From assembly GCA_039810085.1 (NCBI GenBank), contig JBDHWG010000009.1, positions 12,609 through 76,608 on the forward strand: 64,000 nucleotides of DNA, written 5' to 3'. Of the stretch, positions 28,667-59,253 are shown one piece after another (the first letter of the stretch is position 1; every line of letters starts with the position of its first letter). The translations under genes were made by a program, and so were the position numbers. The DNA is from Anaerolineae bacterium (GTDB taxonomy: Bacteria > Chloroflexota > Anaerolineae > Epilineales > JAHCIE01). A model generated the notes under the pieces. The model was not told the origin of the DNA. It saw nothing but the letters and a program-made list of their open reading frames with translations, and ran no database searches.

Positions 28667-28703
28667 CAAGACCTGACAGGTTTTGGAAACCTGTCAGGTC
28701 TTG
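28667..28703. repeat. Perfect 37-bp palindrome CAAGACCTGACAGGTTTTGGAAACCTGTCAGGTCTTG in the 68-bp intergenic gap between two GT-C genes
   Basis: 17-bp arms read directly; core shared with 39372-39400. Confidence 0.5.
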
Positions 28704-28708
28704 CTTGC

Positions 28709-31700
28709 CTACTGAACATCCACATCCAGCAGCAGGCGATTGTCCGGCTGCGCTGCGCCCGACGTGTCCCGTATGGGAAGCCGCGCCCCAGCCGCGTCGT
28801 ACCACCCAACCGCGATTTGATACTTACCTGGCGCTGTGCCAGGCGGAACAGTGAGGGTGTAGGGGTCCACGACAACCTCGCCCGCCTGCCACCTGCTTGT
28901 CGGATAGTGGCCGAGGCCCGGCGCGCGGTCGACCTGGCTGATAATCGAGCCATCCGGCGCGAGCATATGCACGAAGACCTTATAGTCCACCGGCGTGGGC
29001 GCGTCAGCCTTCCAGTAGAGCGTCACATCCAACGGCGCGCCCGGCGTTGCCTGCACCGCATCGTAGCCGAGCAGATGCGTTGACGCGCCGATAGTCGCGC
29101 CCGCTGCGTGTTGCGGCGGTCGGGGCGGCTGCGTCAGCGCCGTCGGCCCATCTACCCACACCCGGCCTAACACGACCGGCGACGGGAGTAGCGTCGTTCC
29201 GCTCTCGTCGACGACCTGCAACTCCACCGTCGCCGGACCACGCACTGCATCCGCCGCGACCTTGGCATGGCGAATGCCGTTGAAGACGTCGCCCGGCTGC
29301 CAGGCTTCAGGCGCGAGTTGTACCGGCAACAGGCTCTGCGGTGTCTGGGCTGCCGCGCCGCGCGCGTCGCGCACGCTCAGCACGACCCGCGCACCCTTCA
29401 CCGGCCCCGTTGCCTGCCACCACAGCGGCACGTCCACGGTGTCCCCCGGCTTGACGTCCCTATCGCCCTGGAAGCCATGCCCCAGTAAACGCAGGCCCAC
29501 CAGCGTCAGGTCCGCGTCCAGCCGCGCCGGCACGTCCACCTTCGTCGGCGCAGCCCCACGAGCGACGGATACCTTGCCTAAGGTCACGCTCTCCACCGGC
29601 CCGACCGCCTCGTTGTTGTTCGGCTTTTTGAGCCGGACGCGTAGTGTATACTCGCCTGGCGGCGTCGTGGCGGGCAGTGTCAAAGGCATCAGAGTCGTGT
29701 TAGTCGTACCGAGCGCCCAGGTGGTCGCCGGACGCAGTGCGCTATCCCGCAATGGCCGCTCGGCTGTCAACACAATGCCGCCCTCGGGGTCGAGCACATC
29801 GACGGCAGCAACCAGCGGCTCGCTCACCGGCGCGTTGACGCGCCAGGCCAGGCTCACGCCCTCTGGCTTACCAGCTTGCAACGCCGCGCCGCCTGCCCCC
29901 CAGCCGCCAAGGCTCAGCGGCCCCAGGGCCGCATTGGCAGGTTGGCTCGCAGCGGGCGCCGTGCGGAAGCGCCACACTTCCACGTCGGGGAACTTCCTCG
30001 GACCGGACTCAAGTATAGCCGCTTCCCTGAGCGCGTCCAGGGCTGCGCCTGGGTCGCCTTCTGGATAGCGCAGATACCACAGGCGTTGGACGGGCGGCAG
30101 CGCCGCCAATGCCCCCGCCACATCTGACGCCTGGAAGTGGCCGAAGACCTGCGCCACGGGCATCCCCGGCGGCGTCGAGCGCGCCGCCAGCGATGCTCCG
30201 TTGACCACGAAGCCATCGCCGGGTTGCGCCGCCTGCGTGATATACGCCAGGGGGGCGGTCGCCGTCGTGTTGGTGTAGATCCAGGCGTAGTCGATGCCGT
30301 CGATGCTGACCACCTTCAGCGGCTTCTCATCCGGGTTGTCATAGTAGCGGTTCACGAGGCTCTGGTTGCGCTGGCGCTGTACTTCGTTGAGATAAAGGAC
30401 GATGTAGTCCGTCTGGTAGGGGCGAAAGCCCGGCGCGCTGCGTGTCTCGCCGACGAACAGCGGCGCGAACTGCGATACACCCCGCGCCGCCACCTGGAGG
30501 TCGTTCGCATTCGGCAGGGTGTTCAGAAACGCCGCTGCCTGGTCGTAGCCCTCACCCCACCCCACCAGCAGCCAGCGCACGGCCGCCTGCCCGCCACCGA
30601 GGAGCGGGTTGTAGTACGTCAGGTAGTAGGGCGCGTGGGAGACGGCTATCGCCGCTTCCGTCACCAACACCAGCACGACCGCCACGACAGGCAACCACCG
30701 AGCCAGGCTCAGGCTGGCCCGCGCCCGCCGCGCCGCCACCCACCCGGCCAGCCACGTGACAGCGGCGGCAAGCCCCGCGCCCGCCACGAGGTCCAGCGGC
30801 GGGAACATCGGCAGGATGTAGCGGTCGAATTTCTTCGGGCTGAAAGAAATGAGGACGGCGAAGATGAGAGCGTAGCTCGCCAACCCGACAACGGCGTAGA
30901 CGAACGGGGAGGGTGACAGAACGAGCTGGCGCAGCGATCTCCGCGCCCGATACACTGCCGTGCCGACGCCAACGACCACGATGCCCAGCCCCAGCAGCGT
31001 CCAGGGAGAGGCGCGGAAGCCGTAGGCGACGATATACATGAACGGGCCGGGGTCGTCCACAACCTCTTCGTCGAACACGTTGCCGCCCGCGTGGGGGTTA
31101 CCGCCCTCGACCGCCGCTTTGTCCGCCACGCCGCGCACCGTTCCGACCGGGTTACTCCACGCCGACGGCCAGATGAGCAGGACGGCGATCAGCCCACCGA
31201 CGGCGAACAGCAGTGTCGCTCGAATCACCCCCCGCAGCCGCCGGTCGCGCCAGCCGAGGTAGACCAGCATGAGAACGGCCCACGGCCATAGGAACACCGC
31301 CGCCACCTTCTGCACCAGGGCCGCGCCCGCGAGGGCTCCCGCTGCGATGAGCCAGCGCCACGAAGATTCCCCACCCTCGCTCAGATAGGACAGAAACGCC
31401 GAGGCGCTGAGGCGCTCAGAAGAAACGTTTTGATGTTCTTCCTCTGCGTCTCTGCGTCTCTGCGTTTCTATCCTCTTAGCGTCCTCGACTTGTGGGCGAG
31501 TCGTCAGCAGCGTGAGGACGCTCAGCACGAGCAGGCTGCTGAGCGTCGCGTCGAGGTGGAACACGCGACTGTGCGCCATCACGAACGGATCAAAGGCCAG
31601 CAGCGCCAGTCCCAACACCGCCGCGAGCGCGCCGAGCAGCCGCCGCGCCAGCCAGTAGATGGGGATGAGCAGGAGCCAGTTGAACAGGGCGGGCGCGAAG

Positions 31701-32038
31701 CGCATGCGGAACAGAAGCGCCGCCAGGCCAGCGAGCGCCTGGGCATCGACGCCGGACGGCGCGCTCGCATTCTCCGTCGCCCGGCACGTGGCGAGGACAT
31801 CGGGCGCAGCGCCGGGCGGAACGGCCAGCGTGCCCAGCCACATTGTAATGACGCCAGGGTGGCCGGTCAGAAACGTGCTGCGCGGTTGAAGCGACGCGAG
31901 CGCCTGGCCGAACGACAGCGAGCGGCACACCCAACGCAACTCGTCGGCGGCGACGAACACATCGAGGCGGCTCAGTCTTGCCATCAGCGCCGCGAGGAGG
32001 ATGACGACGGCCAGCGCGTCCAGCCAGCGACCTTTCAA
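28709..32038 (-). CDS. GT-C fold membrane glycosyltransferase (PMT_2/ArnT-like) with tandem C-terminal beta-domain repeats (paralog 2)
   Basis: 1109 aa; DEL motif after TM1, many TM helices, C-term repeats (GYDAVQATPGAPLDVTLYWKA...YKVFVHMLAPDG...GKYQIAVGWYDAAGARLP); ATGA overlap with upstream paralog. Confidence 0.75.
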   Translation of the reverse strand: MKGRWLDALAVVILLAALMARLSRLDVFVAADELRWVCRSLSFGQALASLQPRSTFLTGHPGVITMWLGTLAVPPGAAPDVLATCRATENASAPSGVDAQALAGLAALLFRMRFAPALFNWLLLIPIYWLARRLLGALAAVLGLALLAFDPFVMAHSRVFHLDATLSSLLVLSVLTLLTTRPQVEDAKRIETQRRRDAEEEHQNVSSERLSASAFLSYLSEGGESSWRWLIAAGALAGAALVQKVAAVFLWPWAVLMLVYLGWRDRRLRGVIRATLLFAVGGLIAVLLIWPSAWSNPVGTVRGVADKAAVEGGNPHAGGNVFDEEVVDDPGPFMYIVAYGFRASPWTLLGLGIVVVGVGTAVYRARRSLRQLVLSPSPFVYAVVGLASYALIFAVLISFSPKKFDRYILPMFPPLDLVAGAGLAAAVTWLAGWVAARRARASLSLARWLPVVAVVLVLVTEAAIAVSHAPYYLTYYNPLLGGGQAAVRWLLVGWGEGYDQAAAFLNTLPNANDLQVAARGVSQFAPLFVGETRSAPGFRPYQTDYIVLYLNEVQRQRNQSLVNRYYDNPDEKPLKVVSIDGIDYAWIYTNTTATAPLAYITQAAQPGDGFVVNGASLAARSTPPGMPVAQVFGHFQASDVAGALAALPPVQRLWYLRYPEGDPGAALDALREAAILESGPRKFPDVEVWRFRTAPAASQPANAALGPLSLGGWGAGGAALQAGKPEGVSLAWRVNAPVSEPLVAAVDVLDPEGGIVLTAERPLRDSALRPATTWALGTTNTTLMPLTLPATTPPGEYTLRVRLKKPNNNEAVGPVESVTLGKVSVARGAAPTKVDVPARLDADLTLVGLRLLGHGFQGDRDVKPGDTVDVPLWWQATGPVKGARVVLSVRDARGAAAQTPQSLLPVQLAPEAWQPGDVFNGIRHAKVAADAVRGPATVELQVVDESGTTLLPSPVVLGRVWVDGPTALTQPPRPPQHAAGATIGASTHLLGYDAVQATPGAPLDVTLYWKADAPTPVDYKVFVHMLAPDGSIISQVDRAPGLGHYPTSRWQAGEVVVDPYTLTVPPGTAPGKYQIAVGWYDAAGARLPIRDTSGAAQPDNRLLLDVDVQ

Positions 32039-34731
32039 GGCTTCACCGTAATGTGGCCCAGGACAGCGTGGTCGCCCTCGGTATCCGCGCCCTGAGCAAG
32101 CAGGCGCTGGAGCGTTTTGGCATCGTAGAGACCGACGCGCAAGGGGTAGCTGCCCGGCAGCGTGGACGGGTCAATCGAGATACTGCGCGACTCGATAATC
32201 GTCTCGCCCGGCTGCCACTGTGACGTGGGGCTGGCGCCGGATGCGGGCCAGCTGTCACTCTGGCCGTGAATAATGTCGTCCTCGACGTGGGCAAAAACAC
32301 TCAGGTCTGCCCCCACTTTATCCGTTGGCTGCCAGAAGAGCGTCAGGCCGAACGGCTCACCGGCTTTCACAATCGACGAGGTCAGCTCATAGCCCAACAA
32401 CCGCACCGAGCCGAGCATGGCGTCTGTGCGCATGGCGGGCGGCGCTTCCGCGAGCGCCTGGCCGATGGGGAAGGTCGGGCCGAGATATGGGTCGAAGCGC
32501 GCAGCATCCGCCAGGGTGTAGTAGCGCGGGGCAGCCACCGGGTCCCGGCTGTAGATGCGCAGCTTGGGCGCGCCGTCGGCATCCACGTCCGCCAACAGGT
32601 GATACTCCTTCTCGATGCGGTTGAGCGGAATTTTCACCGCGTCCTGCACATCCTGGGCAACGATGTAGTAGCGCGGGTTGGCGGCGGAGCGCACCGCTCC
32701 GCGCGTGTACCAGCCCGTGACCAGCGGCTCCTCGTTGCTGTCGTAGTCGCCCTGGAGCGTGCCGTCGGCGAAAAGCGAGCCGACGATGCTCCAGCCCGCC
32801 TGGTACGGGAAGCCGAAGTAGCCGCTACTCGGGGGACGATCACCATAGACGGCGGGGTACAACGGGCTGCGCGCCGCGGGATAGATGCGTTTATACTCTG
32901 GGCTGTGGCTCACGAACGCTATCCAGATGTAGCCGCCGAGCAACAAAACGAGTAGCCCGCCGACAGCCATGAGGGCAAAGCGCGCCGAGCGCCCGAATCG
33001 CGCCTGGACACCTTGCGCCAGTGCCGCCACGCCAAGGCCCGCGAGAAGCGCCGCGCCGGGCATCATGGTGTAGAAATGGGTGGTCGGCTTCTGCGTCAAG
33101 AAGCTCGCCACCAGGAACGGCCCCAGGAACCACAGGAGTGTCGCCTTCACGCCGTCGTCGAGGCGCGGCGCCAGCGCCCACAGCAAGAGCGGCAGAAAGA
33201 GAAATAGCGAGAGGTTGTACTTGCCAACGCGCAACGCTTCCGGCGCGGCGGCAGCGACCGCCAGGGCCAGCACAGGCCAGGCCAGGGCAAGCCACCGCCC
33301 GTGGCGGAAGCCACGCCAGCCGAGCCAGGCAAACACCGCGACGAGCGCCACGGCGAGCAGGACAATGTACCACGTCGAGTTGTAGAATGTCGCGCGCAGG
33401 AAGTAGTCGGCCAGCTTGTTATACAGCGGCCCACCAGCCGCCGCCGCATTGCCGACGCCGACGCGGCGGTTGATGATATAGTCAACTGTCTCACGGAAGT
33501 GGGGGTGCAGCGCGAACGGCGCGTAGAAGAAGGCCGCAATGGCCGCACATACCGCCGTCGGCGCCATCAGCCCACGCAGCCCACCCCGCCGCCACAGCAG
33601 GTACGCCACCGGCGGGATGGCGAAGACGGCCTCGTAGTGGCCCAGGCTCCCCGCCGCGACGAGCGCCCCTGCGACGACAGCCCACCGCATTCGCCCGCCC
33701 TGGTAGTAGCGCCACGCCGCCCATACCGCGACAATCGATGTGAGCGCGACGATGCTCTGGTACTGCACGATGCGGCCAAACGCCACAAAGTAGCCATCCA
33801 GCGCCAGGATCAGCGCAGCGACCAGCCCCTCACCCCCTAGCCCCCTCTCCCAAAATGGGAGAGGGGGAACAAGAGGGGCGTTCTGGCTCCCCTTCCCCGC
33901 TTGTGGGGGAAGGGGCTGCAAGAGCATGTCATCGCGAGCAGAGCGAAGCGATCCCTCACCGGGAGATTGCTTCGCTGACGCTCGCAATGACACATCAGGG
34001 CCTGACGAGAACAGCCGCCAGCCGAGCGCGCCGATGCCAAATACAGCGGCGACGTTCATCAGGGCGAAGGGCAACCGCGCCGAGGACTCGTCGATGCCAT
34101 CCGTCGCCGCCCAGACGAGCGCCGGCATGAGCACCTCGCCCGGCGCTTTCTTGTGGAAGAACAGGATTTCGCTGCGTCCCTGCCCCAACCCCGCCGCCAT
34201 CAGCATGGCGCGCGCCTCGTCGCCCTGGAACTCGGAGTAGCTCAGGAACGTCAGGCGGAAGACCAGGGCCAGGGCGACCGGGACCGCCAGCCACCACAGA
34301 GCGCGCACGCGAACAATTGCCGGACGCGCGGCGGTCGTTCCGAGGGCCAGCCAGCCCGCCAGAACGAGCAGCGCGCCGTCGAAAGCAAGTAGCACCGGGG
34401 CGCGGGTCATGGGCGTCGGCAGGTAAGCGACCGCGAGGCTCAAGACCAGAGCGCCCGCTACCGCTAGCGCCGCATCGAGGGCGAGGCGCTCCGGCCACGC
34501 GACGCTTTCGCCAGCCATCAACCGCTCGGCGACAAGCACACCGGGCAGAGCAAACAGAACGATGGCAGCCGTAGCGCGGACGAACAAGGGAACGGGGAGG
34601 AAGAGGAGGAGGTTCGCAACCAGCGCGACAGCAAGCGCAACCAGGGCAAACCATGCCCAAGGCCGCGCGGCGAGGCGTGTCGCGGGAGAAGCGGGGCCGG
34701 CGCCGGCCATCGGGAGACCCGAATCGGCCAT
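32035..34731 (-). CDS. GT-C fold membrane glycosyltransferase (paralog 3) carrying an approximately 57-aa low-complexity in-frame insertion
   Basis: 898 aa; GDE motif, TM-rich N-half, C-term LGYELTSSIVKAGEPFGLTLFWQP...VFAHVEDD...GSYPLRVGLYD repeat. Confidence 0.75.
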   Translation of the reverse strand: MADSGLPMAGAGPASPATRLAARPWAWFALVALAVALVANLLLFLPVPLFVRATAAIVLFALPGVLVAERLMAGESVAWPERLALDAALAVAGALVLSLAVAYLPTPMTRAPVLLAFDGALLVLAGWLALGTTAARPAIVRVRALWWLAVPVALALVFRLTFLSYSEFQGDEARAMLMAAGLGQGRSEILFFHKKAPGEVLMPALVWAATDGIDESSARLPFALMNVAAVFGIGALGWRLFSSGPDVSLRASAKQSPGEGSLRSARDDMLLQPLPPQAGKGSQNAPLVPPLPFWERGLGGEGLVAALILALDGYFVAFGRIVQYQSIVALTSIVAVWAAWRYYQGGRMRWAVVAGALVAAGSLGHYEAVFAIPPVAYLLWRRGGLRGLMAPTAVCAAIAAFFYAPFALHPHFRETVDYIINRRVGVGNAAAAGGPLYNKLADYFLRATFYNSTWYIVLLAVALVAVFAWLGWRGFRHGRWLALAWPVLALAVAAAAPEALRVGKYNLSLFLFLPLLLWALAPRLDDGVKATLLWFLGPFLVASFLTQKPTTHFYTMMPGAALLAGLGVAALAQGVQARFGRSARFALMAVGGLLVLLLGGYIWIAFVSHSPEYKRIYPAARSPLYPAVYGDRPPSSGYFGFPYQAGWSIVGSLFADGTLQGDYDSNEEPLVTGWYTRGAVRSAANPRYYIVAQDVQDAVKIPLNRIEKEYHLLADVDADGAPKLRIYSRDPVAAPRYYTLADAARFDPYLGPTFPIGQALAEAPPAMRTDAMLGSVRLLGYELTSSIVKAGEPFGLTLFWQPTDKVGADLSVFAHVEDDIIHGQSDSWPASGASPTSQWQPGETIIESRSISIDPSTLPGSYPLRVGLYDAKTLQRLLAQGADTEGDHAVLGHITVKP
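33826..33995. repeat. Composite palindromic element inside GT-C paralog 3 CDS: G-rich hairpins (33841-33867, 33889-33915) plus a 64-bp imperfect palindrome (33928-33991)
   Basis: CCCCCTCTCCCA-AAA-TGGGAGAGGGGG; CCCCTTCCCC-GCTTGT-GGGGGAAGGGG; GTCATCGCGAGC...GCTCGCAATGAC also seen at 50548-50610 and 59213-59249. Confidence 0.5.
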
Positions 34732-37826: not shown

Positions 37827-39878
37827 CTAGGGGTGAGGGACCGGCGTCGCCAACTGCACGTAATCGCCTTCGACGCGCTGCCCGTCCACTGTGACCGGCA
37901 GCCGCGCGCCGCTCGCCAGGTCATACATGCCTACCTGGAGCCATAGCTCGCTCGGCGCGTCAGGCGGGAGGGTGATGGAGCGTTCGTCGACGATAATCTG
38001 CCCTGGGTCCCAGGTCGAGGCTGGCGAGACGCCATGCTCGGGCTGGCCGTCGCTCTGCCCGTAGCCCTTGCCACTCGCATCCACCAGGTGCGCGAACACC
38101 GTGTAGTCGATGTCTTGCCCCGCAATGGCGCGCGAGTAGAGCGTGAGGTTAACCTTCTTGCCGTCGGTCGCCAGGGCATAGCCGAGCAGGTCGGCGGCAT
38201 CGCCGAGACGGGCACTCTGCGGGTGCTGAATCTCGGCCGGGTCGAAGCGGCGATAGAGAACGCGGTCCTTCTCGCGCATCGCCGGCACGTAGCGCGCCTT
38301 GATCCAGGCCATGTAACCGTCGAGGCGGTCCAGCCGTCCGTTCCAGAGGACGATGGCGGGCGGATTATACTTAGCCACCGTTGCGATGGCTTCCTCGTTG
38401 GTGAGCTGCCCGGTCTCGATGCGCTTGGAACTTTGCGCCGCAAGCCACGGAATCTGCGTGCGACCGGCGCGAAAAGCAATCATGGGCGGGTCGGCGACGA
38501 TGATGTCCGTCGGCGTCGTGTGCGTCTTGACCCAGTCGGCCGCCGCCAGGAGCGAGCGGTACGGGCCAGGGTCAATCAGATCGCCCAGGTCGGACGCCTG
38601 CCCCGGCGCACGCACCGCGATGAGCGCCAGGGCCGCCAGGGTAACGGCGACCGACACCGCGCCCGATTGACGCGGCGCACGCAGGCTGTCCCATACCCCG
38701 GCGACACCGACAGCGGCCAGAGCGACCAGGGGAAAAAGGAACAGCATGAAGTGATGCTTGGCGAACAGCGGGCGCTGATTGACCAGGACAAGCGCCGTGA
38801 GCGCCAGCCAGCCGAGCATGACCAGGCCGGCATAGCTCCGCCGCCGCAAGAGCGTCCACGCGCCGACAACCGCGAGCGCCGTCACGCCCAGGTTCTCGAC
38901 GGTCATGTACTCCAGAAGCCACTGGGCATACTCCGGCGTCCGGTTAGGCCAAACGTCTCGCGCGGCGAGAGGTGTTGCAAGCGCCTGCGCCATGAAGCCG
39001 CGTACATCGAAAAACAGGAGAAAGGGCGCCCCCACGAGAAGTAGGCCGACGGCCAGGGCAGCCATGCCGCGCCCCGCCTCGCGTACGCGGTTCGGCGCGC
39101 GCCAGACGCCGGGTAGGGCAAAGGCGGCGAGCGGCGCGCTGTAGAGCGCGGCGGTCAGCTTGAGCCACAGCCCCCCGCTGAGGAACACACCCGCCAGGAA
39201 CAGCCAACGCGCCCGTCCCGTATGACCATAGATCAATGCCAGAGCTACCGCCAGCGTTGCCAGACTGACAGAGGGAATGTCGTGGCTGACGGAGCGCGCC
39301 AGCCAGAAGAAATTGGGCGCGAGCGCCATAAGCAGAGGCGCGGCGACAGCGGCGATACCCGGGTTGAGCAGACCTGACAGGTTTTGAAAACCTGTCAGGT
39401 ATGTGCCGGTAATGCGATCCCGCCGCGCCGAGACGCAGATGCCGGCGGCGAGACTCGCGACGGCGGCCAGGCCGAGCAGCCCATACAGAAGAACGACGAG
39501 CCGCCCGCTCTCGACACTCTCACCGAAGACGCGGAAGCCAGCCAACAGCGACAGGGGAACGCCCGGCGGCTGGTCCAGCCAGATGTCGCTGTACAGCCGA
39601 TACCCCTGTCCCATGAGCTGCGCCTGCACAAGCTGGATGCCCTCGTCCGCGTCCCACTGCGTCGCCGACAGCCAGCGCGAGTAGACAAGCCCGACGACGA
39701 CAACCACAAGCGCAACGCCAATTACCGCCACTACCGTCGCCAGCCCCCATTGTACAAGTGGCTTATTGAATTCTTTCGTCTGGACCTCGGTAGCCAGCTT
39801 CTCTCTCCCTACCCCGCCGTTTTTCCTCTGTGTCCTCTGTGACATCTCTCCGTTCACAACGGCTTCAATGGTACGCAA
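37827..39878 (-). CDS. GT-C fold membrane glycosyltransferase (PMT_2/ArnT-like, paralog 4) with one C-terminal beta-domain
   Basis: 683 aa; WDADEGIQL motif after TM1; C-term NLTLYSRAIAGQDIDYTVFAHLVDASG...WLQVGMYDLASGARLP. Confidence 0.75.
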   Translation of the reverse strand: MRTIEAVVNGEMSQRTQRKNGGVGREKLATEVQTKEFNKPLVQWGLATVVAVIGVALVVVVVGLVYSRWLSATQWDADEGIQLVQAQLMGQGYRLYSDIWLDQPPGVPLSLLAGFRVFGESVESGRLVVLLYGLLGLAAVASLAAGICVSARRDRITGTYLTGFQNLSGLLNPGIAAVAAPLLMALAPNFFWLARSVSHDIPSVSLATLAVALALIYGHTGRARWLFLAGVFLSGGLWLKLTAALYSAPLAAFALPGVWRAPNRVREAGRGMAALAVGLLLVGAPFLLFFDVRGFMAQALATPLAARDVWPNRTPEYAQWLLEYMTVENLGVTALAVVGAWTLLRRRSYAGLVMLGWLALTALVLVNQRPLFAKHHFMLFLFPLVALAAVGVAGVWDSLRAPRQSGAVSVAVTLAALALIAVRAPGQASDLGDLIDPGPYRSLLAAADWVKTHTTPTDIIVADPPMIAFRAGRTQIPWLAAQSSKRIETGQLTNEEAIATVAKYNPPAIVLWNGRLDRLDGYMAWIKARYVPAMREKDRVLYRRFDPAEIQHPQSARLGDAADLLGYALATDGKKVNLTLYSRAIAGQDIDYTVFAHLVDASGKGYGQSDGQPEHGVSPASTWDPGQIIVDERSITLPPDAPSELWLQVGMYDLASGARLPVTVDGQRVEGDYVQLATPVPHP
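39372..39400. repeat. Perfect 29-bp palindrome ACCTGACAGGTTTT-G-AAAACCTGTCAGGT embedded in-frame in GT-C paralog 4 (encodes TGFQNLSGL)
   Basis: 14-bp arms read directly; same core as 28667-28703. Confidence 0.5.
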
Positions 39879-42858: not shown

Positions 42859-44863
42859 TCATTTTAGTAGCATCTCCGGTGTCACCTGGACTTTGCCCAG
42901 CGACACGCTCTCGCCCAACGGTCTGCCATCCGGCCCACTCACCGCCAGGTTGTGCTGCTCGCGCGCGTCCCACATGCGCACCTGCACGTCATACCCGCCA
43001 GGCGCCAGGTCTTTCGGGAGGTCGAGGACGGTCACACCGCGCACGGGCACACCGACGGGAAAGGCGGCGGTCGCCAGCCAGGCCGTGCTCGGCGCCTGGT
43101 TGTGTGTCGCCACAACGCGGCCCGAGGCATCCACCAGGTTGACGGTAACGGTGTAGTCTCGGTCGAGCGTCTGCTCAGCCCGCCAGTAGAAGATCCAGCG
43201 CAGCGCGCCCGGCTCGTCGCCGAACGGATCGACGCCGGTGAGCGTGAGCCGGTCGGCGTATGTCGCGCCCACTGGCTGCTGCGGCGTCGGGATGGCGACG
43301 ACGGGCGACCAGTCCTTGATGTTGAAGCGCATCAGGGTGTAGCCCGGTATCTGGGTGCGGATGAACGGCTCCCCCTCGCTGCGCCGGGACAGCTCAGCCA
43401 GCACCATCCCCGTGGGATCGGCAAACTCGTGGTGCCACAGGATGACCCAGACGCGCCCGGGGTGACGCGCCAGGAGATCGTTCAGCACACGCGCGCCGTT
43501 CTCGAAGTCGTAGCCAACGTGGATGCCCCACTGGGGCGTCGTGCCCTTGTAGTAATAGTTGAAGGCATACGGCGCATCTTCGACCAGCACGATGGCGTCA
43601 TCGTCGGCGCGGGCGCGGTCCATGAGGTACTGCGCCATCCGACGCGCGTCCTCCTGCGGCGACCACGAGGTTTGCGCAGCGCGCACGGCCTCGCGTCCTG
43701 AGAAGGCGAGCGCTGCGACGAGAATGACAACGTAGGCCAGGCGAAAGACCTGCTGACGCCGCCACAGGGCCTCGAACGCGAGCATCACCAGCGCCACGTA
43801 GAGCGCCGGCGCAGCGACGATGGCATAGCGCGCCGCGAACTTGGGCGCAAGCGTTACGGCCACCCCTGTGAGAGCAATCGGAATCGCCGCCGCGAGGACG
43901 ACCAACAGCTCACGCCGCGCCAGGCTCTTGTCTCGCAGCCAGCGTCGAATCAGGAACAGCGCCGCGCCCACGACCGCGAGCCCCAGCAAGAGCAGCGCCA
44001 GACGTGTCGAACCGATGGCGAGGAAGCTGCCCAGGATGCGGCCAATGACGCCTAGCGGATCCAACTCCGCCGGGAAGAAGTCGGGGTGGGCGGCCAGCCG
44101 CGCCATCTGGGCTGCCGTAGGCGCAAGCCACGGGAGATAGGCGATGAACGCCAGGGATGCAGCCGCCAGCCAGCGCAGGAACACACGGCGTCCGGCTAGC
44201 GCCGCATAGATGAACAGGGCGGGCAGCAGAAGCGCGGTGAGGTAGAGCGTGTACAGCATCCCGGCCAGCGCCGCGCCATGCAACGCCCACGGCCACACGT
44301 CTATCCAGTTTCTGATACCCCTCTGCTCCCCCTCTCCCTTTGTGGGAGAGGGGGGTGGGGGGGGGGGTACTCCGCGTCGCCCGCAGCAGGGTTGCCACGG
44401 CTAGTAGACCCCACATCGCAGCCAGGCTGTACATGCGCGCTTCCTGCGACGTGTAGATGAGGAACGGCGATAGGGCGACCAGGAGCGCGGCGGGAACGGC
44501 CGCGAACAGCGCTGCGATGCTCGAGCGCGTGCGGCCCGCGTAGACTTCGGCCAGGGTGACGTAGGCGAGGGGAATCAGCAGAACGCCGGGCGCGAGGCTG
44601 ACCCAGCGCACGGCAAACTCGCTCTGGCCCGCGACAAGCATCCAGGCATGGAGGAGCAGATAGTACAGCGGGGGGTGCAGGTCCTCCCGCACCAGGGTGG
44701 TCATCATGGCGGGCAAGGGGCGGCCCGCGAAATTGACGCTCAACCCCTCGTCAAACCACAGGCTCGCATCGCCCAGGGACCAGACCCTAGCAGTGAAGGC
44801 GACAAGTGTCACCCCCAGCATCGCCAAGGATGCCCAGCGCAACGGGCCAAACGATTTCGTCAT
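42859..44863 (-). pseudogene. GT-C fold glycosyltransferase (paralog 5) interrupted by a single frameshift at a G11/C11 homopolymer; N-part 44368-44863, C-part 42859-44367
   Basis: ORF 43910-44863 has WFDEGLSVNFA GT-C N-terminus then loses frame at TPPPTPLS (poly-C); ORF 42859-44298 continues the TM-rich body in another frame. Confidence 0.6.
44350..44367. repeat. Homopolymeric tract G6-T-G11
   Basis: Read directly: GGGGGGTGGGGGGGGGGG; coincides with the frame switch between ORFs 43910-44863 and 42859-44298. Confidence 0.6.
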
Positions 44864-50536: not shown

Positions 50537-50547
50537 AGTATATTACC

Positions 50548-50610
50548 GTCGTTGCGAGCGTCAGCGAAGCAACCTCCCGTCGCGGGATCGCGTCGCTCCG
50601 CTCGCGATGA
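50548..50610. repeat. 63-bp imperfect-palindromic repeat filling the PMM-gmd intergenic gap (copy 2 of family)
   Basis: Reverse complement GTCATCGCGAGCGGAGCGACGCGATCCC...GGGAGGTTGCTTCGCTGACGCTCGCAACGAC roughly 90% identical by eye to 33928-33991. Confidence 0.5.
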
Positions 50611-50611
50611 C

Positions 50612-51628
50612 TTAAACCCGGCTTGGGACGCGCTCGTTGCGCAGCGCCGTCAGGTCCGCCTCGACCATCATCTCCACCATCTGCTCGAACGAGACGTCCG
50701 GTGTCCACCCCAACTCCGTCCGCGCCTTGGTCGCGTCGCCAACCAGCAAATCCACCTCGGCCGGGCGCAAGTCCGACGGGTTGACGTAGACGTAGTCTTC
50801 CCAATTGAGGCCCACACACCCAAACGCCACCTCGCACAGCCGACGGACCGAGTGGGTCATCCCCGTCGCCACAACGTAGTCGCCGGGCGCGGGCTGCTGG
50901 AGCATCAGCCACATGGCGCGAACGTAGTCCGGCGCGAAGCCCCAGTCGCGCTGCGCCTCCAGGTTGCCCAGGGGCAGGCGGTCGACCAGGCCGAGCTTGA
51001 TCTTGGCGGCGTGATACGTCACCTTGTGGGTCACGAACTCAAGGCCACGGCGCGGCGACTCGTGGTTGAACAGAATGCCGGAGCAGGCGAACAGGTCGTA
51101 GCTCTCGCGGTAGTTGACCGTGATCCAGTGGCCGTAGACCTTTGCCACGCCGTAGGGACTGCGCGGGTAGAACGGCGTGCGCTCAGTCTGCGGCACCTCC
51201 TGCACCTTGCCGAACATCTCGGAGCTGGATGCCTGGTAAAACCGGATGTCCGGATCCACCATCCGAATCGCGTCGAGGACGCGCGTGACGCCAAGCGCGG
51301 TCGCCTCGCCGGTGAACACCGGCTGCACCCATGACGTTGGCACGAAGCTCTGCGCGGCAAGATTGTAGACCTCGTGGGGCCGCGTCTCACGGAGGATGGA
51401 CATGAGCGACACTTCGTCCATCAAGTCGCCCGGTACGAGGGTAATCTGATCCTGGATGTGGCGGATGCGGTCGAAGTTGACGGTGCTGGTGCGCCGCACC
51501 ATGCCGATGACCTCGTAGCCCTGCTCCAGGAGCAGTTCTGCCAGATACGAACCATCCTGGCCGGTGATTCCGGTAATCAATGCGCGCTTTCGCTGCGACA
51601 CGCTTGGTACTCCCTTCTTGTGCCCCAC
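50612..51628 (-). CDS. gmd: GDP-mannose 4,6-dehydratase
   Basis: [25 protein letters not shown]...[11 protein letters not shown]...[10 protein letters not shown] canonical GMD. Confidence 0.9.
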
Positions 51629-58861: not shown

Positions 58862-59049
58862 AAAAAAATGTCTCTCCATGCGCACAGAGAGACACTGCTG
58901 CAAGGTCTCTCATCTTTCAGGCGCTTCGCCTGCCGGAGTTGGCACCAGGCGCGGATGATCTCGGCTGGCGAGCTTACGCTCGCGTCACGATCCGGGCTGG
59001 TTGCCGGGGCTTCACAGGGCCGTTCCCTCCACCCCTCTGGATAAGAGCC
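58862..59049 (-). ncRNA. SAM-I (S-box) riboswitch with intrinsic terminator, in the leader of the mtnA-pfkB-GNAT-ahcY-metK operon
   Basis: Minus-strand RNA reads CUCUUAUCCAGAGGGGUGGAGGGAACGGCCCUGUGAAGCCCCGGCAACC...GGUGCCAACUCCGGCAGGCGAAGCGCCUGAAAGAUGAGAG, then terminator GUCUCUC-N10-GAGAGAC-AUUUUUUU. Confidence 0.8.
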
Positions 59050-59212
59050 AATCTTTAATTGTCGCAGAATACTAGCACACTCACGCCGCCGGGTCAAATT
59101 AGGGCCGGCCCTTGTGAAGAGGACGGCCGGGGTGCGGGGGCGATAGCCCCTGCCGACAAAGCAATCTTTCGGCAGGCGACAGACGGTCTGAGCGGTTATA
59201 GCGTGACTATCA

Positions 59213-59249
59213 CCCGTCGGGAGATTGCTTCGCGTTCGCTCGCAACGAC
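59213..59249. repeat. Partial (3-prime half) copy of the 64-bp palindromic repeat family, just downstream of ccmC stop
   Basis: CCCGTCGGGAGATTGCTTCGCGTTCGCTCGCAACGAC matches CGGGAGATTGCTTCGCTGACGCTCGCAATGAC of copy 1. Confidence 0.35.
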
Positions 59250-59253
59250 GCGG

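Follow-up and report, generated by a model that had tools for sequence, protein, structure and literature searches.

What is a 171-base stretch of palindromes doing inside the open reading frame (ORF) of a glycosyltransferase gene, and where does it come from? The question is raised by a contig of an Anaerolineae bacterium (JBDHWG010000009.1), of which we analyzed a window of 64 kb (the whole stretch of DNA considered here, with a G+C content of 60.8%). The gene in question was the third of the GT-C paralogs numbered in a preliminary description of this window, and its product carries 57 residues that its more distant homologs lack. The answer that we consider likely is that small dispersed hairpin repeats have settled in a permissive loop of the enzyme and make up this insert as a nest. 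These repeats would be of the type of the Ssn-related motifs (SRM) that flank homologs of the nuclease SsnA (Chenal et al. 2025, Nat Commun; PMC11893778), their spread would be linked to Ssn nucleases, and a G-rich hairpin family would have nested among them later. The gene and its insert are as follows:

32035 to 34731, minus strand: host gene, encoding an 898-residue GT-C glycosyltransferase (PMT_2/GT39-like; ORF, PF13231 match, AlphaFold [AF2] model, and Foldseek)
33835 to 34005, minus strand: inserted coding segment of 171 bases (57 residues, 243-299), without counterpart in homologs P0012-P0035 and disordered in the model

An Insertion in a Loop of a GT-C Glycosyltransferase

The product of the host gene is identical to a protein on record (P0001), whose named homologs come from Anaerolineae metagenome-assembled genomes (MAGs), and the Pfam family PF13231 (PMT_2) was matched in this protein and in most of these homologs. 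The AlphaFold model of the host protein, computed with 42 homologs as input, reached a mean pLDDT of 88.9 and a pTM of 0.90, and its top Foldseek matches were STT3, Pmt4, ALG9/12, and EmbA/B, with a probability of 1.00 and modest TM-scores of 0.3-0.5. The preliminary description had read the 57-residue peptide correctly from this ORF, and its proposal that the stretch interrupts a continuous hydrophobic sequence as an insertion is borne out by both alignment and model. In a 35-protein alignment, the query carries 57 extra residues relative to homologs at ~35-43% identity, in which a short basic loop (RRLFPRHP) runs straight into the next hydrophobic helix. In the model, residues 243-299 form the sole internal disordered segment (pLDDT 43-58, no secondary structure), flanked by helices 215-242 and 300-310. 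The 57-residue stretch is thus a true insertion in the host gene, and the loop that it occupies between two transmembrane helices is probably cytoplasmic, to judge from the flanking basic residues and the positive-inside rule.

Four orthologs with 80-84% identity, found at syntenic loci (L001-L004), each carry an insert at the same position; together with the window gene, they make up the five close orthologs, or five lineages, to which we refer below, and the insertion is ancestral to all five. The reading frame of the insert is open, stop-free, and a multiple of three in each of them, though the downstream parts of the insert differ, and the site is compatible with the fold, so that the earlier comparison with the in-frame insertion of Rickettsia palindromic elements (RPEs) proved apt. 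Outside the insert, the orthologous genes are 80-84% identical at all nucleotide positions versus 60-69% at the third positions of conserved codons, which indicates that the host gene is under purifying selection and is no pseudogene. The same loop has also received other sequences: the homolog P0010, encoded at locus L249 with ~50% identity, holds there a different GC-rich hairpin (GGGCAGGC-ACGGGC-GCCTGCCC, peptide GRHGRLPL), and the protein alignment displays further small inserts at this position in more distant homologs, which suggests that the loop is a permissive site that has been colonized repeatedly.

A Putative Nest of Two Repeat Families

The palindromes inside the insert, namely two perfect G-rich hairpins and one imperfect palindrome, lie where they had been placed previously, and their dissection gave the following features:

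33927 to 33992, minus strand: inverted doublet of SRM-like units, coding strand TGTCATTGCGAGCGTCAGCGAAGCAATCTCCCGGTGAGGGATCGCTTCGCTCTGCTCGCGATGACA, encoding VSLRASAKQSPGEGSLRSARDD (nhmmer E 4e-23)
33961 to 33992, minus strand: unit 1 of the doublet, with a TGTC tag, a basal stem ATTGC:GCAAT, an internal loop, a 2-bp apical stem, and a CTCCC tail (exact match to the family pattern, fold, covariation)
33927 to 33955, plus strand: unit 2 of the doublet, with a TGTC tag and a compensated basal stem ATCGC:GCGAT (ortholog comparison, fold, covariation)
33889 to 33915, no strand: G-rich perfect hairpin 2, CCCCTTCCCC N7 GGGGAAGGGG, 10 of 10 bp, collinear in L004
33841 to 33867, no strand: G-rich perfect hairpin 1, CCCCCTCTCCCA AAA TGGGAGAGGGGG, 12 of 12 bp, with a compensated form CCCCCTCGCCC/GGGCGAGGGGG in L004
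33826 to 33840, minus strand: tail of the G-rich element, coding strand CTAGGGGGTGAGGGG; the layout of a hairpin followed by GGGTGAGGG is found in 10 unrelated fetched loci

The insert is not a single element: it combines, in nested fashion, repeats of at least two families that are unrelated to each other. Its first part is the 66-nt inverted doublet of two ~30-nt hairpin units whose YGTC tags point outward, and its second part is a G-rich module made of the two perfect hairpins and a GGGGTGAGGGG tail. All five orthologs open their insert with the same palindrome, the full doublet being present in the window, L002, L003, and L004 and its left half only in L001. What comes after it varies: the two G-rich hairpins and a GGGGGTGA(G/A)GG tail follow in the same order in the window and L004, the doublet is followed by unrelated sequence without the G-rich hairpins in L002 and L003, and the half doublet of L001 is accompanied by a G-rich hairpin preceded by CCCTCACCC, that is, in the opposite orientation.

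Copies in the Window and Evidence for Mobility

Both parts of the insert have further copies in the window:

50547 to 50612, plus strand: second full doublet (copy B), intergenic, between an epimerase gene, whose stop codon it follows directly, and a phosphomannomutase gene that starts 31 nt further on
59198 to 59250, minus strand: third copy (copy C), with one intact unit (59221-59249) and the loop, the upstream partner unit being degenerate (aligned with intact copies in L024, L044, and L120)
44328 to 44354, no strand: G-rich hairpin 1 in a second copy, which lies within a different GT-C paralog and next to a G6TG10 run

The match between 33928-33987 and the reverse complement of 50611-50552 reaches 90% over 60 nt (E 3e-15), and positions 33960-33975 are identical to 59218-59233. 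The palindrome, initially described as 64 bp long, therefore does recur at 50547-50612 and, in part, at 59198-59250, but measures 66 nt once its conserved end bases are counted. With up to three mismatches allowed, the 29-nt unit occurs at three sites of the window (33963-33991, 50548-50576, and 59221-59249) and the G-rich hairpin at two (33842-33866 and 44329-44353), when 100 shuffles yielded no match for either. The dispersal of these copies is thus far beyond chance; the hairpin 1 copy at 44328-44354 had been missed in the preliminary description.

Only one of the three doublet or unit copies of the window, that of the host gene, is intragenic. For copy B, an empty site could be observed: the orthologous spacers of L208 (9 nt) and L209 (15 nt), whose proteins are 75% identical, are devoid of the repeat. 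In a comparison aimed at the orthology of copy C, its flanks failed to align with those of L024, L044, and L120; a SAM riboswitch (RF00162, 85.8 bits) lies ~110 nt from this copy, at 58907-59047 on the minus strand. In other genomes, the relative STL-CHL22 has copies matching the exact pattern on at least three contigs (L024, L030, and L058), and one deltaproteobacterial MAG has seven copies with a common loop sequence, which indicates that the doublet has spread as a unit within a genome.

Inverted Hairpin Units Conserved through Compensation

On the coding strand, the doublet reads TGTCATTGCGAGCGTCAGCGAAGCAATCTCCC-GGTGA-GGGATCGCTTCGCTCTGCTCGCGATGACA, and its 66 nt correspond to exactly 22 codons. 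Each unit is built from a YGTC tag, a basal stem 5 bp long, a 2x3 internal loop, and an apical stem, which measures 2 bp in the short form and more in other forms, and ends in a CTC/CCC tail. In the copy of the host gene (copy A), the basal stems are ATTGC:GCAAT and ATCGC:GCGAT, and in copy B, GTTGC:GCAAC and ATCGC:GCGAT, so that the two units of one copy are incompletely complementary to each other. To follow this at a larger scale, 471 units were taken from ~1.1 Mb of fetched loci, with anchors that left three variable stem positions free. The units are paired in 390 of 471 cases, versus a mean of 337 and a maximum of 349 in shuffles, and of the 38 units changed on both sides of the stem, 28 are compensated by Watson-Crick pairs (ATC/GAT in 13, ACT/AGT in 9, GTT/AAC in 5, and TTT/AAA in 1). 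Compensation within the unit implies that the conserved object is the ~30-nt hairpin unit. A single long hairpin formed between the units, as the palindrome had first been interpreted, is favored thermodynamically but was rejected as the conserved unit because the two arms each stay self-complementary while diverging from each other; the palindrome is instead an inverted pair of self-folding hairpins.

At the ends of complete elements, a pyrimidine precedes GTC in 54 of 65 cases and a purine follows GAC in 56 of 65 (YGTC...GACR ends), and the flanks beyond these end bases are unconserved. Target duplications, proposed earlier as something to check at the insertion sites, were looked for in these 65 complete elements, none of which has flanking direct repeats of 4 nt or more. 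Because a doublet is 66 nt long and makes no target duplication, its insertion leaves the reading frame intact.

Among the window, L002, L003, and L004, the doublet is 85-97% identical, versus 60-69% at the synonymous third positions, which are near saturation. Between the window and L003, it has two non-synonymous differences (TCG/TTG and GAT/AAT), which are the two sides of one stem pair, so that a serine/leucine and an aspartate/asparagine covary among orthologs. G-rich hairpin 1 likewise shows a compensated pair between the window and L004, from T-A to G-C. The conservation of the doublet and these compensated changes may reflect selection on the hairpin, conversion toward the family consensus, or template switching at quasi-palindromes, and our data fit all three possibilities.

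Cross-Phylum Distribution and Association with a GIY-YIG Nuclease Gene

The 25-nt pattern TTGCGAGCGNNNGCGAAGCAAYCTC, with its ~22 specified bases, is expected to match less than once by chance in 596 Gb. Among the matches listed, more than 118 genome stretches carry it; they have G+C contents of 31-70% and represent dozens of phyla, including Bacteroidota, several groups of the candidate phyla radiation, Cyanobacteria, Proteobacteria, Planctomycetota, Nitrospirota, Clostridia, and Chloroflexota. A partner unit lies within 140 nt in 79 of the 122 listed matches, giving elements of 55-161 nt, and the units are mostly intergenic, about six of the 122 being inside long ORFs. The usual layout is the inverted doublet; short units in head-to-tail tandem, with a period of 40 nt, were also seen at L018 (6894-6958) and L041 (50-114). 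Clustering of the ORFs within 1.2 kb of the 122 listed matches revealed no dominant family and no transposase family.

At one locus (L079), a small GIY-YIG gene fills exactly the space from a left unit to a right one, which its stop codon overlaps. A search from the protein side, in which the best 80 of 546 GIY-YIG relatives in metagenome contigs were examined, extended this arrangement: both left-unit motifs occur within 150 nt upstream of the nuclease gene in 61 of 75 loci, both right-unit motifs within 120 nt downstream in 62 of 76, and all four motifs in 51 of 71, against a background of 0.28 motifs per kb. In 38 of 76 loci, GATTGC starts at the base right after the nuclease stop codon, and in loci found via the protein alone, GAGATTGC directly adjoins this codon; the same junction between stop codon and right unit is present in a Chloroflexota genome (L210). 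In the family at large, the long form of the element thus has two inverted units, tags outward, that bracket a single-domain GIY-YIG gene of 93-95 codons, probably of the Ssn family. The encoded nuclease matches PF01541 as its only Pfam family, has the UPF0213 proteins 1ZG2 and 1YWL as nearest solved structures, and belongs to a set that, clustered at 90% identity, comprises at least 2,601 clusters, named just “GIY-YIG nuclease family protein.”

In viral-contig data, canonical units (CGTCATTCCCGCGAAGGCGGGAATCCAG ... CTGGATTCCCGCCTTCGCGGGAATGACG) stand on both sides of more distant homologs, which is the layout published for ssnA (PMC11893778), and a homolog flanked by canonical units is 47% identical to the nuclease associated with ATTGCGAG. 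At L067 (4440-4800), a GIY-YIG homolog whose frame appears to be shifted internally has canonical units that differ between its two sides, TGTCATTCCCGCGAAAGCGGGAATCCAG upstream and CTGGATGCCCGATCAAGTCGGGCATGACA downstream. Short contigs of ~1-3 kb hold many of the nuclease genes (L128-L207), and the gene of L210 (1-330) is at a contig end, as expected of a multi-copy element that breaks assemblies.

Origin of the Insert and Alternative Explanations

In the scenario that we deem likely, small dispersed hairpin repeats would have landed in the permissive short loop of the glycosyltransferase, the REPIN-like 66-nt doublet being presumably the oldest part of the insert. This ORF-less doublet would be spread or maintained in trans, its hairpins being recognized in single-stranded DNA and nicked by an Ssn-type nuclease, together with repair by the host. 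Selection would remove the copies that break genes and let only loop insertions survive, the G-rich hairpins with their GGGGTGAGGGG tail would have nested beside the doublet later, and the region would keep turning over through insertion and deletion. The units, their dispersal, the empty sites, the lack of target duplication, the association with a gene, and the retention of the frame are matters of observation; the spreading mechanism is conjecture, because Ssn nucleases are known to cut single-stranded DNA and to modulate transformation, not to transpose (PMC11893778).

Beyond this limit to what Ssn nucleases are known to do, several points weigh against the nesting of Ssn-linked repeats. 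The GIY-YIG nuclease gene is present at only 3 of 118 randomly matched loci, and a profile search detected no ssn gene in the 64-kb window or in the 70 kb of orthologous loci (L001-L004). The published SRM motif, HGTCWYN(0-2)YYVSBRHN(0-5)WNVSBRGN(0-2)RNCYNB, matches the canonical Neisseria repeat used as positive control but none of 472 units of the present class and none of the four units of the window. Translation of the insert is deduced from the conservation of its frame only. Finally, the long inter-unit hairpin, at -24 kcal/mol (z = -6.7), is far more stable than single units, whose -3 to -6.5 kcal/mol are non-significant, and both structures may form.

An explanation that we regard as unlikely, yet that accounts for part of the data, is that the host keeps the hairpin units for a function at the DNA level, for example as Ssn sites that limit or shape the recombination of incoming single-stranded DNA within a variable cluster of cell-envelope glycosyltransferases, so that they would be no passive selfish insert. 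It would agree with a doublet far more conserved than synonymous sites, with stem changes compensated inside a coding region at the price of covarying S/L and D/N residues, and with the presence of four of the nine perfect hairpins of the window inside GT-C paralogs; in Neisseria, the SsnA-bound repeats cluster near membrane-protein genes and cut transformation 5-fold (PMC11893778). Such a function is nevertheless hard to reconcile with the lack of an ssn gene in the window and the orthologous loci searched, with the loss of half of the doublet by L001, whose gene is intact, and with the free turnover of the remainder of the insert, when gene conversion to the family consensus or quasi-palindrome template switching could produce the same similarity without benefit to the host. 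Rather improbable, in our estimation, is the proposal that the ATTGCGAG-type doublet is a functional intragenic Ssn target, selected as a DNA hairpin and acting as a boundary for recombination or for single-stranded DNA restriction in a rapidly diversifying glycosyltransferase cluster, and that its cross-phylum class, missed by the published SRM motif, is a large unrecognized part of the Ssn system; if this were true, selection on hairpin structure would force covarying amino-acid changes in a coding region.

That the ~170 bp inserted at once, as one composite element resembling a MITE (a miniature transposable element with inverted repeats), was the view of the preliminary description, and it is by now largely refuted, leaving it very unlikely. 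In its favor, the three palindromes lie side by side, their joint fold is very stable, and the whole arrangement is collinear in the window and L004. Yet the parts are found separately, since 50547-50612 holds the doublet by itself and 44328-44354 holds G-rich hairpin 1 by itself; in L002 and L003 the doublet precedes unrelated sequence, and in L001 half a doublet stands with a G-rich hairpin of opposite orientation; the two parts belong to different cross-phylum families; and the whole has neither terminal inverted repeats nor a target duplication.

We find it highly improbable that the segment is removed before or after translation, in the manner of an intron or an intein, which would make its frame irrelevant. 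The sense RNA of 33820-34000 does have a strong fold (-113 kcal/mol, z = -7.8), reminiscent of bulge-helix-bulge or self-splicing elements, but an Rfam scan of the whole window at gathering thresholds, whose single match was the SAM riboswitch, retrieved no family at the insert. The open frame and the multiple-of-three length kept in all five orthologs, despite differing downstream parts, would moreover be unexpected of an excised segment, the units repeat at the level of DNA and mostly between genes, and the published nuclease is inactive on RNA (PMC11893778). As for a native low-complexity linker with coincidental palindromes, chance inverted repeats are plentiful in GC-rich genomes (0-6 matches with stems of at least 9 bp in Markov shuffles vs. 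19 observed), but this idea is refuted by the absence of either motif from 100 shuffles, by the 60-nt match at E 3e-15, by the 25-nt pattern in more than 118 genome stretches among the matches listed, and by the absence of the segment from distant homologs.

Other Hairpin Repeats in the Glycosyltransferase Cluster

The 19 hairpin matches of the window with stems of at least 9 bp amount to nine distinct perfect hairpins. Several palindromes other than those of the insert were observed among the GT-C paralogs. Paralog B (28709..32038) contains in frame, at 31380-31500, an imperfect palindrome of ~85 nt with many GCAGAGAC repeats (peptide ETQRRRDAEEEHQ...LSASAF); it is missing in the ortholog of L002, where a degenerate G-rich hairpin takes its place. 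The hairpin ACCTGACAGGTTT-N3-AAACCTGTCAGGT occurs in frame in paralog D as well as inside a 63-nt intergenic insertion. This insertion, between the stop and the start of consecutive GT-C paralogs, contains at 28667-28703 a perfect hairpin with a 17-bp stem (CAAGACCTGACAGGTTT TGG AAACCTGTCAGGTCTTG); it is present in the window and L001, and L002 and L003 have a 5-nt spacer instead. A member of the same hairpin family is in frame at 39372-39400, in the GT-C paralog 37827..39878 (peptide LTGFQNLSGL), and is likewise present in the window and L001, L002 and L003 having an unrelated sequence of equal length.

At 44327-44368, the G-rich hairpin is followed by the G6TG10 run, and a one-base shift is needed to join the ORFs 43910..44863 and 42859..44298 into a GT-C gene. 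This apparent frameshift could mean that the gene is a pseudogene or undergoes phase variation, or could be a sequencing error in the homopolymer. Genes of L002 and L030 were considered as orthologs of this frameshifted paralog and rejected, both being different paralogs. The G-rich hairpin itself, in the form CCCTCTCCC-N4-6-GGGAGAGGG and usually with the GGGTGAGGG tail, was found in unrelated taxa, with 10 strict matches in 1.05 Mb versus ~0.002 by chance (L019, L057, L078, L084, L159, L162, L170, L177, L192, and L198), and constitutes a second cross-phylum hairpin family.

Significance

These observations add a free-living Chloroflexota lineage to the hosts of in-frame “coding palindromes,” so far Rickettsia along with a few Proteobacteria and Verrucomicrobia, and tie this behavior to the recently described system of Ssn nucleases and repeats. 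They also bring to light a very widespread class of hairpins (dozens of phyla, at least 2,601 nuclease clusters) that the published search motif does not detect, and current counts of Ssn-related repeats are consequently probably underestimates. The host gene may furthermore offer a natural case of DNA-hairpin constraints shaping a protein sequence. In practical terms, such repeats yield spurious peptides (VSLRASAKQS, LLRSARND, and GEGLGGEG) and break assemblies, and are worth being recognized by annotators.

Comparison with Known Repeat Systems

A full-text literature search with the repeat sequences returned unrelated primers only. Of the closest known systems, the first is that of SsnA, a 94-residue single-domain GIY-YIG protein of Neisseria meningitidis (CDD cd10448), which binds the hairpin repeat NTS (CGTCATTCCCGCGMAVGCGGGAATCYRG) as single-stranded DNA only, cuts a few nucleotides upstream of it, and reduces transformation by NTS-containing DNA 5-fold (Chenal et al. 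2025; PMC11893778). According to the same study, thousands of SsnA homologs across phyla are flanked by SRMs, the genomes rich in SRMs include those of Rickettsia and Wolbachia, NTS cluster around membrane-protein genes in Neisseria and are rarely intragenic (2%), and the NTS-ssnA-NTS layout resembles an insertion sequence whose mobility is not shown. The present units share with this system ~30-nt oriented hairpins with GTC just upstream of the stem and C just after it, on which cleavage and binding depend in the Ssn system, their inverted arrangement, family-wide, around a ~94-codon single-domain GIY-YIG gene, and hundreds of ORF-less, mostly intergenic copies in many phyla. They depart from it by their stem, ATTGC...GCAAT instead of the ATTCCCGC...GCGGGAAT of NTS, which an internal loop separates from an apical stem of variable sequence or length, and the copy studied here is intragenic and predicted to be translated, with no ssn gene within the 64-kb window.

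A second comparison is with the repetitive extragenic palindromes (REPs) tagged with CGTC or TGTC, which have stems starting with AT, frequently form inverted dimers, and include Rickettsia RPE-4 and RPE-6 and Neisseria dRS3 (Di Nocera et al. 2013; PMC3733652). Their dimers and clusters are also found in frame inside ORFs, where they encode 20-82 residues, and the same study noted that they had no known dedicated enzyme (PMC3733652). The terminal tag, the AT-starting stem, the short unpaired tail, the inverted dimers, and the occasional in-frame copies are all found in our units. In contrast, CGTC REPs have an uninterrupted 8-9-bp stem, a 4-5-nt loop, and a CCA tail, where in the present units the basal stem has 5 bp and gives way to an internal loop and the tail is CTC, and Chloroflexi are outside the phyla listed for CGTC REPs (PMC3733652). 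Taken together, these features suggest that our units are a distinct sequence class of the CGTC-REP/SRM superfamily, outside the published definition of the SRM motif, even though the element works in the manner of an SRM/REPIN doublet.

The doublet is also reminiscent of the REPIN-RAYT system (Bertels and Rainey 2011; PMC3116915), in which two inverted REP hairpins and a short spacer form the replicating unit, without target duplication and with the cognate gene lying between inverted REPs. Here, however, this gene encodes a GIY-YIG nuclease rather than a Y1 HUH (IS200/IS605-like) RAYT transposase, the tag is YGTC rather than GTAG, and the nuclease gene seems to exist in many copies spread horizontally, when that of RAYT is single-copy and vertically inherited. 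From classical MITEs, the elements differ by the absence of target-site duplications of 4 nt or more in the 65 elements considered.

As for RPEs, the resemblance lies in a palindromic repeat present in frame in a functional gene, whose peptide stands at a position compatible with the fold (Ogata et al. 2000; PMC10969869). The host, a free-living environmental bacterium of another phylum, nevertheless differs from obligate intracellular Rickettsia, the element is shorter (66 nt vs. ~100-150 nt), and one of its three copies in the window is intragenic. The link to RPEs is probably more than an analogy, because the TGTC/CGTC tag is that of the superfamily in which RPE-4 and RPE-6 have been placed, an equation with CGTC REPs on which this relatedness rests (PMC3733652), and because Rickettsia is among the SRM-rich genomes (PMC11893778). 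The NTS/SRM-ssnA-SRM architecture and the phenomenon of in-frame palindromes are thus already published, and what is new is their present instance in a Chloroflexota glycosyltransferase and the class of hairpin units to which it belongs.

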